A stretch of DNA of 64,000 bases, taken from Escherichia coli (GTDB taxonomy: Bacteria > Pseudomonadota > Gammaproteobacteria > Enterobacterales > Enterobacteriaceae). Position numbers and translations under genes: made by a program. This document shows positions 60,114 to 64,000 of the stretch, one piece after another. Location: NCBI RefSeq assembly GCF_041886205.1, contig NZ_CP169029.1, one strand, 5' to 3'. The notes beneath the pieces were generated by a model. That model made no database searches and was not told the DNA's origin. It was given only the letters and a program-made list of their open reading frames with translations. Every line of letters begins with the position of its first letter. Position 1 is the first letter of the stretch.

Positions 60114-61255
60114 TTACGAAAGCCCGCTCCCCGCAAGGACTGACGCCAGATAGTTTCTGTCCATGGCTGCTTTTCGCATCTTACGTCTTAACCCTGCCTT
60201 GAATACCTTATCATTCGTCAAAATATTAATAGCAATGTGCCGTATCCCTGAAAATAATTCTGCTGCATTTCCTCTTCTTATTTTGCAGTCGTCTTCATTC
60301 ATTACCACGTCCAGACGCCAGTGCAGCTTATTCTCCACGTGCCAGTGATTTCGGATTGCTGTGGCGAACTTTTCAGCGGTTAAATCAGCAGAACTGATAT
60401 AATATCTGACCGTCATTTCTGGCTCTTTCTTTTGTTCTGCTATTATGGACCGAAAGGAGACTGCCACGCATAATTTCTTCAGCCCTTTCCATTCAAACGT
60501 GAAATCAATAAGTTCATCAGGGACATCGCAAACAATATGAAGACGGATTTCTTCTCTGCCGTGACTCTTTTCACTAATTGCGTAACTGTCATGCTCTGGA
60601 TTATTTAATTCTTTCAGCGGAAATCTCTCCTCAAAGGCTTTATTTAGCCGCCCCTGGTTTCCTTTTACCGCGAATAAATAATCACCTCCCTGTTTTTGTA
60701 TCTTCTCTGCAATATCTTTCTGGCAACCCATCGCATCAGTTGTGATGATTTTTCCTTTAATATCCAGCATGTTTAAGAAGTTCTGGGATAGCTGTAATCT
60801 CATTAGATTTCTCATCCGTCCTGATCTGTCCGATGACCAGACTGTGCATTGTTGAGAACGCACTAATGACATGAATCGCTCCCCTGCGGCGACTCTTGTC
60901 ATAAATGTGCCGGAAGTGTTTTCCCATCAATTGCGATGACGTCTTTATCATCTGAAGAATGGCAGCTCACGCATCCAGTTAATAAAGCACTCAGTGAAAT
61001 TTTCCAGGACTGATACAGGATACAACTCTGGCAATAGTATCGTGAACAGGAATACCATTTTCAAAATCACCATATTGCTTCAAGAAATCGAGACGTGTTT
61101 CCCCGAAATCCTCCATATCTTCCCAACTTTCTGCACCAGAAATAACGGCACAACACAGTCAACAGTAGGATGTCCGGACGATTTATGCTCCACTTTCCAG
61201 GCTCGTACTCTAATGGGGACAGACAGCAAATATGTTCCATCAATTGTTCAAGTTC
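60114..61255 (-). pseudogene. ISAs1-family (H-repeat-associated) transposase gene, near full length but disrupted by several frameshifts
   Basis: Fragments in three frames (MEHI...DILLLT; [34 protein letters not shown]; [45 protein letters not shown]; [22 protein letters not shown]...[10 protein letters not shown]...) that are collinear with what I recall of an ISAs1 transposase; upper boundary approximate. Confidence 0.8.
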
Positions 61256-61538
61256 CAGTTGGTTCTACCTTAATTATGTAAGGAGTATGTTGATCATGTA
61301 TAAGCTATAAAACAGCTTCAGGTAATGAGGAAGTATCTCAATTCTGAATACCTAGAATGCGAAGTATTTAGTACAAAAAAGTGAGCGTCTGACGTGATGC
61401 CTGTGTCCTAGGCGCAGCCCTTCTTTCTTTTCCTCTTCACCCTTGATGTCTTGGCAATCCCTTGGTAAATTCAGTGCCATCTTCTTTATTCCAAGTGTTA
61501 TTTAGGCTGCGTTTCCTCTTCTTATCCGGCTGGCATCT

Positions 61539-62429
61539 TCATTGATTTTCTACATATCTAACACCCAATGAAGACTGTGCTGATTCAACCAGTGCGCTCT
61601 GAGAGCACGTGCAAGTTCTCCACGCATCCATATCCTTTGATGAAATATAATATCTGATGCCCACACCTTCTGCTGATTTATCTTCTTTCTTCTGCCTGAA
61701 TGACAATGCTACACAAGAGCTTTTCAATCTCTTCCATTCTAATTCAAAGTCACAAAAGTTCAGGTCATGATACTGACAATATGCAAACGTGCACCACTTC
61801 TTCCATGCCTTGTCTCCTGGGAATTACGGGCTGCCTTTGTAATCAGAAAACACGTTCACAGGCAATTTTTCCTCGAACGCACGAGGCGATTTCCCTGATT
61901 CGCCTTATTTACTGCCAGAGATGATCTGCTATTTAATCATGTCTATAGCTATCGAAGCGACAGCTTCTAGACAGCCCATAGCAGTCAGTGGTCATCGAAT
62001 TGTTGAACTTAAAATACGAGTTAGGTTAGTAGCAACTCTGGAAGTGGCTGTAATCATCATTACTTTCGGCCTCCGAATGCCACCTGCCCCAGTACAACAC
62101 CTATTTCCGTTCGAGATATGCACTTTCACCATATGCGATTGCTCCTTTTCGTTTTCCCTCAGGAAGTAGTCTTTAACTGCTCTTCCATCTATTGCTGTAA
62201 TTTCACCATCAGTGATTTCATGGCACTCCTGTATCCATTCAATAAACATCTTTTCAAAGGCCAAGACTGTCAATGTTGCTCGCGACGCGTGCAATGCTGT
62301 CATTCGACCGTAATGCCATTGATCAAAATCACCATATTTCTTTAGCCATTCAAGTCTTTCATGTCCAAGATCTGCATTTTCTTTACCCGCATTGGCACCT
62401 GCCAACAACTGCACATACGGTGAGAACAA
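61539..62429 (-). pseudogene. second, more divergent and internally decayed H-repeat (ISAs1-like) transposase remnant
   Basis: 145-aa fragment (...LEWLKKYGDFDQW...ITAIDGRAVKDYF...) resembles the ISAs1 N-terminal region; 62-aa fragment (...VGIRYYISSKDMDAWR...) resembles its C-terminal region. Confidence 0.6.
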
Positions 62430-63422
62430 ATAGCAGATACTTTATGTTGATAGACCGTACCTTGTCGTCGTATATCAGGGACTTACTGAAAACCGATCAA
62501 AGCAAACTTTGAGTAACACTCGCCTGCGTCCATTTTTTCTAGCTGTATTCATCAACTCCTGCAACGATATCACCTGTATGGCGTTGAAGCCCAAGATGAA
62601 GGCGTCGTGATCCACGATCGCGAATTTCAAGTATTTCGCCCCGTCCCTTGCGCTCGTGACTTTCTGTATGTATTTCATGTTTTACCCAGTTCTGGTGTTG
62701 TCCAATAATGACCATCCACCGATCCAGTCAAAAACTTCATTTTTCAAATTGATACCATAACAATCAACATCGTAATGGTCTCCATAATTAATTATTTAAC
62801 AACTAGCCAACACGTTTTGATCATCAAAATAGCACCCGTTAGCGAAAGTAGCGCAGAACAATCCATAATCTCCAGTTTGCTAATGTTTCGCAATCGCACG
62901 CTATAAAGAATATCACCGAAAAAACTAACGATTTATATCAACCACTCCAGCAGAGCGACCTGAAACTCTTAACCATTATACTTATAAAATGACCATTCCC
63001 TCGACTAGTTCTCTGGTCATTAATTATTGCATAAATAATATTCACCCAGAAACATCTATCTCAACTGCTCGTTGCTGGCCCATGTCCGGTAAATATGATG
63101 TCTGGGAATTTGAATAGGGTATCAAGCCCAAAGGTAAAACAAATAAACCAGGTGGTAATTGAGAAGATGGCCAAGTTTGCCTCTGGTAATTCAAGTGTCT
63201 GAACTCCCTTGCTTTGCTTTCATTGGATTATCTGCATCCCTGGCCACCCCAACCCGTGGAGTCGCCCAGTGGCGTATTTTTCAATACGTGCATCGCTACA
63301 TTTGGCAGAAAAATCGCCACAAGCAATACCTGACAGTGTTATTTTCAGATTGATGATTCTGTCTGTAGCTGGGCGTAACCCTGTCTATCCCTGCAGCTGA
63401 TGATTTTGACCTATCATGTTAG

Positions 63423-64000
63423 CTATTGTCGCATCCAACTGGCCTGGTCAATCGACGCATCAAGTGGCAATGTCTCAATTGCATCGGCGGCCCCATTATG
63501 AGCTCCGCCAACAATAGCATCCATGGCATAACCGGGCTGGTAGGCGCTGTTAGTAATGCGGTCTGCAGCAATCAATCCAGGTACACCAGATACGGCATAA
63601 ATTAGTCCACCTGATGTCCATATTTCGATCGCATCTAGCCCCATTGGGTCTATCAAACTGCACCGGATTTCAGCGGATACTGATACAAATTCCATCCCCC
63701 CTTCAGCCCAATCGGATCCTGAGTGATATACCTCCCCTGCAGCGGGTCATAATAGCGGTGGCGGTTGTAATACAGGCCGGACTCCTCATCATACTGCTGC
63801 CCCGGCAGGCGGATAAGCTGCTGCAGGCTGATGCGGGTTCTCTTCATTCAGCAGGTTGCCCCATTCATCGTATTCTGCGCACCACGCTGTTGCCCCTTCC
63901 GTGCTGATAAGCGCCAGCGGCAGGCCGCGATGGTCGCAGTGGTACAGGTGGATTTTTCGCGCCGGCGTGTACACCGGGTCCATCTGGTTTTGCATCTGCT
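63423..64000 (-). pseudogene. Rhs protein 3' end (core end plus C-terminal tip), frame-disrupted; 5' part beyond window end
   Basis: Rhs core-end motifs [42 protein letters not shown] / [51 protein letters not shown] / (W)IDPMGL split over three track ORFs in two frames. Confidence 0.8.

Follow-up and report, generated by a model that had tools for sequence, protein, structure and literature searches.

The stretch of DNA that we analysed (hereafter the window; 64,000 nucleotides of Escherichia coli contig NZ_CP169029.1) comprises a clean clonal frame at 1..59889, which carries the prp operon through fadE-ivy-yafV as in the E. coli N1/wlxctx60 lineage, and a tail of H-repeat and Rhs-associated genes, all on the minus strand. 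The tail begins with an error-free segment (59890..60624) at which the haplotype switches, made up of a common "O26-type" spacer and the 3′ part of the first ISAs1-family (H-repeat) transposase pseudogene. This copy 1 (60114..61250, minus strand) is colinear with ECO26_RS01215 of E. coli O26:H11 11368, itself annotated as "ISAs1 family transposase, internal stop". Its 262-aa ORF (60114-60902) matches the Pfam domain DDE_Tnp_1 (PF01609, E = 6.5e-18), and it carries the extra bases T at 60772 (TTT vs TT), A at 60914, C at 60966 and G at 60994. The second ISAs1-family pseudogene, copy 2 (61352..62490, minus strand), keeps a population-wide TAA stop and frameshift that it shares with O26:H11 11368, and adds ~58 further indel bases private to the window: the O26 copy runs in one frame for 250 codons, and this frame is broken in the window at dozens of points. 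Its substitutions are even over codon positions (24/30/29) and its 145-aa ORF has no Pfam match. No uninterrupted ORF of ~378 aa with the N-terminal DDE_Tnp_1_assoc domain exists in the window; intact 378-aa ISAs1 copies with both domains adjoin yafV in other genomes (loci L033 and L037). In the population-wide O26-type allele, copy 1 has one internal stop and copy 2 has one frameshift and several stops; both are already pseudogenes there, and this is real biology under the noise described below.

The H-repeats are followed by a remnant of the Rhs-associated ydcD family (~62705..63197, minus strand) with several stops and frameshifts. With the YdcD of strain Z1322HEC0009 (hereafter Z1322; 160 aa, intact) as query, tblastn recovers it in the window at 45-54% identity, in two frames and with stops; the window has no intact ~160-aa YdcD homologue directly downstream of the Rhs gene, and ydcD is intact in Z1322 and at the loci L010, L011, L013 and L017. 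The C-terminal tip of the Rhs protein (63181..63689, minus strand) is frameshifted after the motif AADA, and the DUF6973 domain that Pfam detects in the O26-type tip (L010) is not matched by the window's 90-aa ORF. The end of the Rhs core (63690..64000, minus strand) retains a Pfam RHS match (PF03527; E = 2.3e-17 for the ORF 63789-63995) and matches, at 99.4% identity, the RhsC-locus orphan core instead of the type usual at the yafV-adjacent locus. Third codon positions account for 34 of the 45 sites at which it departs from the O26 core, which makes it a natural alternative core. Private 1-bp insertions break the Rhs gene at 63827 (G; GG vs G) and at 63669 (T), just 5′ of the core part; no continuous frame leads from the core across the DPxGL junction to the toxin tip, as it is broken at both of these sites and inside the tip.

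As a whole, the tail is colinear, in the same order, with the T6SS-linked Rhs element of O26:H11 11368 (ECO26_RS01195 to RS01215), which has two H-repeats: yafV (in a 255-aa allele), a 223-nt spacer, two ISAs1 copies, ydcD, an Rhs tip with DUF6973 and the core. It differs from that element in its RhsC-orphan-type core and in ~490 private differences (60100-63700).

The clonal part of the window

The clean frame agrees with sequences obtained from other strains. Outside the tail, 12 SNPs and a single 1-bp indel, which is intergenic, separate the window from wlxctx60, an independent complete genome, in ~57.6 kb, and this sole indel is also present in N1; the first 25 kb (1-25000) is 100.0% identical to wlxctx60. 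Some 40 kb (15390-27884, 36038-57177 and 53998-59889) is 100% identical to contigs of other assemblies, among them the N1 scaffolds JH965285.1 (at 15390-27652) and JH965279.1 (at 53998-59889) and a contig of GCA_043370295.1 (at 36038-57177). There are zero differences from N1 over 12.3 kb, from GCA_043370295.1 over 21.1 kb, from GCA_011032045.1 over 19.7 kb and from Logan contigs over 2.5-14 kb. Of 46 annotated CDS outside the tail, 45 are full length, without gaps or stops. The window's 666-aa deletion-fusion ORF has its match, among the NCBI assemblies on record, only in N1, and exact 30-32-mers taken from the deletion junction at 25420 and from the tail have no match in two public contig collections (genome and metagenome). 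The first ~59.9 kb of the window is demonstrably real sequence, and the window outside the tail is trustworthy down to the single base. The real lesions of its other accessory and selfish DNA are large events, namely truncation by an IS1 and a 3.26-kb deletion, which account for the gene disruptions there; none is a one-base indel.

The IS1 (35185..35952, plus strand) is intact, with InsA of 91 aa and InsB of 167 aa, and has truncated both of its neighbours, an AraC-type regulator and the DUF2326 ABC ATPase of an ABC-three-component (ABC-3C) system. The ATPase gene is cut after 28 codons, and the ABC-3C system is therefore incomplete. Homology to wlxctx60 stops at 35184, and a GCA_043370295.1 contig (L027) and a Logan contig (L029, run SRR29303307) stop, by coordinate arithmetic, at the edge of the IS1. 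The other two ABC-3C genes, coding for SMEK (326 aa, 36225-37205, minus strand) and MC6 (83 aa, 36005-36256, minus strand), are intact and overlap by 32 nt, as the same pair does in other genomes. At least 1000 contigs encode the exact 326-aa SMEK protein, other genomes have an identical MC6 protein, and 35952-37700 aligns without gaps and at 99.94% identity to their SMEK/MC6 loci. The possible frameshift that an earlier note on this DNA had placed at a "cassette A/B boundary" at 36240 (AAA vs AA) is therefore none: both genes are whole and their overlap is natural.

The noisy tract past yafV

At 59890 the window departs from its own clone. N1 is identical to it up to 59889 and then continues into an IS256 remnant and T6SS remnants; the same remnants lie past yafV in wlxctx60, 6EVA (where IS256 is annotated as adjoining yafV), GCA_022970685.1 and others. 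N1, wlxctx60 and the other alignable near-clonal loci differ from the window at 59890, 59900, 59902, 59906, 59911 and 59915, and homology to them is lost at 59919, where they have the IS256 remnant instead. The window's 59890-60624 matches O26-type loci, and in comparison with the aligned natural copies no window-private base occurs before 60625, leaving 735 clean nucleotides between the switch and the first private error. Unlike the O26 element, the module of the window is found in a clone none of whose inspected members has it, and from 59890 onward it is doubtful whether this strain carries an ISAs1-ydcD-Rhs module at all. Among the genomes compared, the arrangement next to yafV takes many forms, and the locus is a hot spot of recombination; a real strain of the clone could gain an O26-type module by recombination there, a point that speaks against an artefact.

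All one-base indels of the window, bar the intergenic one outside the tail, lie in a single tract at 60625-63830, which holds ~119 indel events and ~390 substitutions and in which genes and spacers are hit alike. With 119 events in ~3.2 kb, as against one in ~57.6 kb, the indel rate is raised ~2100-fold (Fisher p = 1e-151). The damage opens with a light-noise zone (60625..61149) of ~12 window-private changes, including the four 1-bp insertions of ISAs1 copy 1 listed above; none of the 18-19 natural ISAs1 copies aligned, among them paralogues, has these private bases. In the heavy-noise zone that follows (61150..63690), ~12% of bases are substituted, 3.4% inserted and 1.3% deleted relative to the O26-type module, amounting to ~17% of alignment columns. 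The last 170 nt of the window is again without errors. Among 5,426 complete E. coli genomes, the top identity is 84.3% for 61000-64000, the module being present in 2,428 of them, and 96.3% for ISAs1 copy 1; the segment 58000-64000 as a whole is only 91.8% identical to E. coli, a shortfall that comes entirely from the tail. Nine ORFs of the tail have no match in a collection of 15 billion proteins, an absence that is informative only for N1, GCA_022970685.1 and the Logan/ENA contigs, because the NCBI annotation (PGAP) seems to skip pseudogene fragments (e.g., an 886-aa ORF of the IS256-truncated Rhs region is uncalled at the loci L046 and L050).

These observations recast the pattern first noted here, that one-base indels recur in accessory genes while core genes are intact. 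Many one-base length changes do disrupt Rhs and the ISAs1 copies, as had been reported, as well as the ydcD remnant, and the 45 intact CDS bear out the contrast with the core; what fails is independent recurrence, as the indels form a single tract. Nor is the damage limited to accessory genes, since the tract is also ~12% substituted and runs through intergenic DNA, and the accessory IS1 and ABC-3C genes are clean.

Polarity and spectrum of the changes

Over the tract, O26 is <1% different from Z1322, and ~490 alignment columns are private to the window. Its private changes are ~20-100x denser than those of two other E. coli genomes in the same 3.6 kb. When ISAs1 copy 1 was used as an outgroup at the differing sites of copy 2, it had the O26 state at 97 of them, the window's state at 20 and neither at 36, and indels polarised in this way gave the same outcome as substitutions. 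As judged from these alignments, essentially all changes in the tract are shown to be derived on the window's branch.

The spectrum of these changes is the reverse of bacterial decay. Bacterial mutation is reportedly biased towards AT and towards deletions (Hershberg & Petrov 2010; Mira, Ochman & Moran 2001; both cited in PMC4285135); here, AT to GC substitutions number 222 vs 41 from GC to AT (favoured 3:1 per site), and insertion events outnumber deletion events by 87 to 32. The per-site substitution rates (T 18.8%, A 13.3%, C 6.3%, G 7.0%) imply an equilibrium GC content of 75%, and there is a strand asymmetry, with 41 T>A vs 6 A>T changes. The indel-to-substitution ratio is ~1:2.8, and inserted bases are drawn evenly (A 25, C 23, G 30, T 23). 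The length changes had been described as falling mostly in short runs; this did not hold up, as only 22 of 75 one-base insertions (29%) repeat a neighbouring base, compared with ~44% by chance. A/T runs of at least 5 bases were altered in 21 of 26 cases, mostly through interruption by substitutions and not through a change in length. In 50-bp bins the noise shows no correlation with GC content (Spearman -0.16, p = 0.26). Differences occur in clusters, with an index of dispersion of 1.9 and identical runs of up to 54 nt, and the noise is therefore not a simple uniform process.

Origin of the tail

The choice put forward at the outset, between genuine decay and homopolymer error, asked the right question, and the error side is nearer the truth; neither alternative holds as stated. 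Under decay, old ISAs1, ydcD and Rhs-tip pseudogenes would have eroded in this or a donor lineage while the core stayed under selection. Some decay is real, since the annotations of two unrelated strains, O26 and Z1322, list each ISAs1 copy as a pseudogene. The third-position differences of the Rhs core are likewise natural, the hot spot with its many arrangements would admit such a history, and the tract resembles bacterial pseudogene erosion in that dispensable genes are hit, frames are destroyed and ISAs1 copy 2 shows no codon-position preference. It is unlike erosion in the direction of its composition and length changes, in its rate relative to the flanks, in its privacy and in the equal damage to intergenic DNA. 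The lesions shared in copy 2 mean that the window and O26-type copies descend from one pseudogene, yet after this common ancestor the O26-type acquired ~0 later frame-breaking indels as against ~50 in the window. Moreover, the flanks have diverged by only 0.02% as opposed to ~17% of alignment columns in the tract; none of 5,426 genomes shares the extra changes, which are derived on the window's branch; their AT to GC and insertion bias and their ratio of indels to substitutions reverse the spectrum; and the intergenic DNA is equally hit while IS1 and the ABC-3C genes are intact. Decay as the source of these frameshifts thus appears distinctly improbable to us. A platform homopolymer error that affects the whole assembly (454, Ion Torrent or nanopore) and becomes visible only where the protein is known would explain some run-length changes, such as those at 60772 (TT to TTT), 63827 (G to GG) and 61376 (AAAAA to AAAAAA). 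It is hard to reconcile with a single indel, common to N1, in ~57.6 kb outside the tail and with 45 of 46 CDS intact, with insertions that extend runs less often than chance would, with long A/T runs broken by substitutions, and with the substitution of ~12% of tract positions. Nanopore errors comprise more deletions than mismatches and more mismatches than insertions, with deletions dominating homopolymers and fewer errors in low-GC DNA (PMC8486125), and the tract is opposite to this profile on each point. The comparison with independent assemblies already refutes an error of this kind, and we regard it as having next to no chance of being the explanation.

A biological process confined to this module could in principle account for a tract with such sharp borders to clean DNA, in a genome that is clonal elsewhere: localised hypermutation of the Rhs toxin/immunity/H-repeat module by a targeted error-prone mechanism would fit the strand asymmetry and the concentration of changes on A/T sites. 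Rhs tips are moreover known to diversify. However, dead transposase genes and spacers lie within the tract, which starts 735 nt past a haplotype switch that is not found in the relatives of the clone. Diversity-generating retroelements (DGRs) alter adenines alone, within some 100-150 bp, and we know of no bacterial system that introduces ~12% substitutions of all classes together with ~5% of 1-bp insertions, mostly non-templated, across 3 kb. Such hypermutation is, in our view, extremely unlikely. That the tract is real DNA in the form of a module acquired by recombination and altered in vivo by a locally targeted, A/T-directed, strand-asymmetric error-prone process that also adds single untemplated bases is very unlikely; were it so, it would represent an unprecedented kind of local hypermutation.

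Several further candidates were tried and set aside. A divergent species is incompatible with the 100.0% identity of 1-25000 to wlxctx60, the low identity coming solely from the tail. A noisy contig end, as such, is at odds with the last 311 nt being 99.4% identical to natural Rhs cores. An ancestral window from which the O26 type decayed would fit the AT/GC and indel polarity, but the reading frames are preserved in O26, and by the outgroup it is the window that changed. Import from a distant Escherichia donor fails on the shared pseudogene lesions and the extreme rate asymmetry. Against a hybrid-assembly bridge or a failure of low-GC polishing stand the lack of a GC correlation and the location of the noise in the unique tract and not in repeats.

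Since the changes are private, derived on the window's branch, confined to one tract, non-evolutionary in spectrum and preceded by a departure from the clone at 59890, we consider it likely (roughly 0.75) that the frameshifts of the tail are a data artefact, i.e., that the tail, over the last ~3.4 kb of the window, is a non-biological, low-fidelity and probably misplaced sequence, and represent neither decay nor homopolymer error. The window is an accurate copy of an E. coli N1-lineage chromosome up to 59889, and from 59890 it continues not with the clone's IS256 remnant but with the species-common order past yafV: spacer, ISAs1 copy 1, ISAs1 copy 2, ydcD, Rhs tip and Rhs core. The fidelity of this continuation is perfect for 735 nt, falls with sparse errors from 60625, collapses into garbled sequence at 61150-63690 and returns in a near-clean, highly repeated Rhs core, which is of a widespread alternative type. 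As to the cause, the sequence was probably either misjoined and drawn from data of very low fidelity or computed (produced or imputed). On a rough split, a misjoined or computed continuation has somewhat less than an even chance; low-fidelity sequencing of a real module is possible, though we would hold it only tentatively. In practice, this is mainly a quality-control matter: the answer governs each pseudogene call, as the earlier note had foreseen, in the sense that it does so for those of the tail. Pseudogene calls, frameshift positions and "decayed" ORFs in 60625-64000 are unreliable in detail, and downstream findings that rest on the last 4.1 kb of the window should be discounted.

The tail resembles an unpolished single-read patch or contig end in its bounded 15-17% divergence, its dense 1-bp indels, its occurrence in one record and its accurate flanks. 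It is unlike a low-fidelity consensus in that the tract is substitution-dominated, shifted from AT to GC, richer in insertions than in deletions and not associated with runs, and in that the noise lies in the unique tract while the Rhs core is clean and the last 170 nt error-free. Two points weigh against an artefact: the error profile, with substitutions far exceeding insertions and these exceeding deletions, fits no sequencing platform that was checked, and a clean multi-copy Rhs core beside a noisy unique tract is the opposite of what ordinary unpolished-repeat artefacts give. A lead is offered by the likeness to a computed (imputed or model-generated) continuation, in which the tail follows the species-common arrangement and not the clone's own, the composition drifts to the genome average and errors become more frequent the farther the sequence runs from the switch; unlike a fully computed sequence, the window is real up to that switch. 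The noise is also lower where a segment occurs more often in E. coli genomes: it is 0-2% in ISAs1 copy 1 (~25,000 places), ~1% in the Rhs core (~34,000 places) and ~17% in the unique tract (~2,400 genomes).

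Accuracy and clonal frame up to 59889

The window covers the segment of the E. coli chromosome from the prp operon to fadE-ivy-yafV, and is near-identical to the complete genome of wlxctx60 except for two structural differences; over 1-35184 and 37457-59889 only 12 SNPs and one 1-bp indel separate the window from that genome. This sole 1-bp indel outside the window's tail (from 59890 onward), one additional T at 17989, within the 9 nt that separate the yahI stop from the yahJ start, is also found in scaffold JH965285.1 of another near-clonal relative, E. coli N1 (GCA_000303635.2), and is thus a real lineage polymorphism. 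Independent assemblies match the window gaplessly at 100.000% identity: N1 scaffold JH965285.1 over 15390-27652, a contig of GCA_043370295.1 over 36038-57177, a contig of GCA_011032045.1 over 37457-57177, and several Logan contigs. The earlier note had taken the core genes to be intact, which is borne out: of 46 CDS that the wlxctx60 annotation lists as intact, 45 span their full length here with neither gaps nor stops, and the 46th, yafV, is the common 255-aa allele. Hence, general indel noise is absent, which answers one of the checks that the same note proposed. In the ehaA-betT intergenic region (27652-27884), N1 scaffold JH965285.1 and a Logan contig from run ERR14095546 both end; the window and wlxctx60 are continuous there. 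Between dinB and yafL (49695-52282), the window and wlxctx60 identically carry lateral flagellar cluster remnants (truncated flhA/lfhA, lafU) and a gene for the REP-associated tyrosine transposase, rayT.

Departure from the clone and layout of the tail

N1 shares the window's deletion-fusion ORF and, on scaffold JH965279.1, is identical to it over 53998-59889; differences then appear at 59890, 59900, 59902, 59906, 59911 and 59915, and homology ends at 59919. At this junction N1 has a 256-aa yafV together with remnants of an IS256 (EKI55680.1) and of a T6SS, with the same junction seen in wlxctx60, 6EVA, GCA_022970685.1, GCA_014209675.1, GCA_032685705.1 and several Logan/ENA contigs. The window from 59890 is instead colinear with the post-yafV arrangement of E. 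coli O26:H11 11368 (O26) and many other strains, namely a spacer, an ISAs1 (H-repeat) pseudogene, a second ISAs1 pseudogene, ydcD and an Rhs gene entered from its 3′ end. No inspected genome of the clonal frame was found to carry this O26-type module, and the tail probably does not belong to this clone; alternatively, the window may derive from a genuine recombinant strain of the clone that carries the module. The N1/wlxctx60 lineage itself retains a ~38-nt remnant of an ISAs1 3′ end between the IS256 remnant and yafV (about 6440-6545 in the N1 scaffold JH965279.1; 17694-17731 in the comparison locus L004), which suggests that it once had a yafV-adjacent ISAs1 copy, later lost by an IS256-associated deletion.

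The window follows the O26-type module without error as far as 60624. Bases absent from all 18-19 aligned natural copies first occur at 60625 and 60627, and roughly twelve private changes follow up to 61149, among them 1-bp insertions at 60772, 60914, 60966 and 60994. Over 61150-63690, ~17% of the alignment columns differ from the module; from 63690 to 64000 the window shows 99.4% identity to natural DNA, the Rhs core of the RhsC-locus orphan type, and further private insertions occur at 63669 and 63827. This core is not the one paired with this tip in O26-type genomes, and the combination is absent from all complete genomes. The frameshifts reported by the earlier note are thus real, but they are not recurrent hits in separate genes: they fall in one tract (60625-63830), and intergenic DNA in the tail is damaged as greatly as the ORFs.

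Origin and spectrum of the changes in the tail

Over 61000-64000 none of 5,426 complete E. coli genomes, 2,428 of which carry the module, exceeds 84.3% identity to the window, and for ISAs1 copy 1 none exceeds 96.3%. Twelve natural module copies from unrelated strains are all roughly equidistant from it. Private alignment columns over 60100-63700 number 5 in O26, 22 in Z1322HEC0009 and ~490 in the window, a rate asymmetry that excludes ordinary decay as well as acquisition of an old allele from a different lineage. Of the differing sites, the outgroup ISAs1 copy 1 supports O26 at 97, the window at 20 and neither at 36, the split expected of a 65%-identical outgroup if all changes lie on the window's branch; indel polarity by outgroup gave the same outcome. 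As read from the alignments, the TAA stop and frameshift of the O26-type ISAs1 copy 2 are both present in the window's copy, and hence the two copies descend from one pseudogene; the O26-type copy keeps a single frame over 250 codons, which the window breaks dozens of times. Both H-repeat transposase genes of the module are pseudogenes species-wide, which is ordinary biology.

The substitutions comprise 222 AT->GC versus 41 GC->AT, with per-site rates (T 18.8%, A 13.3%, C 6.3%, G 7.0%) implying an equilibrium GC of 75%, and a strand asymmetry of 41 T>A versus 6 A>T; in ISAs1 copy 2 they are even across codon positions (24/30/29). Insertions outnumber deletions by 87 events to 32 (p = 5e-7), the inserted bases are even (A 25, C 23, G 30, T 23), and just 22 of the 75 insertions of a single base duplicate the base next to them. 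Among A/T runs of at least 5 bases, 21 of 26 are altered, mostly by substitutions that break them (e.g., TTTTTTT -> TTCACCC), and the differences are clustered (index of dispersion 1.9), leaving stretches as long as 54 nt identical. Bacterial mutation reportedly favors AT and deletions (Hershberg & Petrov 2010; Mira et al. 2001; both cited in PMC4285135). PacBio CLR errors are mainly insertions, with few substitutions. In nanopore reads deletions are more frequent than mismatches and these than insertions, homopolymer errors are mainly deletions, and errors are less frequent where GC is low (PMC8486125). The tail fits none of these profiles: its spectrum is neither evolutionary nor that of a known sequencing process.

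Read most simply, these data mean that the final ~4.1 kb misrepresents this organism's DNA. The window switches to a species-common arrangement and follows it for ~735 flawless bases. In the segments with the most copies across E. coli genomes, ISAs1 copy 1 and the Rhs core, noise is at its lowest, and it peaks in the single-copy tract; base composition drifts towards the genome average. This four-part pattern is what one would expect of imputed or computationally continued sequence, and fits less well with reads of very low fidelity having been misjoined here. Of the explanations that the earlier note offered for the frameshifts, mutational decay confined to selfish genes is contradicted by changes that are private to the window's branch, reversed in spectrum and equally dense in intergenic DNA; homopolymer error founders on the few neighbor-repeating insertions, the A/T runs broken mostly by substitution and the lack of general indel noise. 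Local in vivo hypermutation of the tract is very improbable. As an artefact, the tail is of relevance only to quality control.

Gene losses elsewhere in the window

The boundary at 36240, suspected of being a further frameshift, proved to be a natural 32-nt overlap of two intact genes of an ABC-three-component (ABC-3C) system, SMEK (326 aa) and MC6 (83 aa). The pair occurs with the identical overlap in other genomes, to whose loci this stretch is 99.94% identical and gap-free, and the 326-aa SMEK protein is present on at least 1000 contigs. The third ABC-3C gene, coding for a DUF2326 ATPase, retains just 28 codons before it is cut by an intact IS1 (35185-35952), which on its opposite side also truncates an AraC-type regulator. 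Relative to wlxctx60, a 3.26-kb deletion at 25420, with a 3-nt overlap at its junction (25420-25422), joins remnants of pdeL and ehaA into a 666-aa ORF (25390-27390); the exact fusion protein is recorded elsewhere only in N1 (EKI55540.1) and in the Logan run ERR14095546, making it useful as a clone marker. The real gene losses of the window stem from IS1 and a deletion, and are ordinary biology. The IS1 and the truncated defence system together (35185-37456), beside thrW/proA, replace a ~12-kb fdeC-containing region of wlxctx60, and the thrW-adjacent ABC-3C island is intact in other E. coli (comparison loci L020, L021 and L023).
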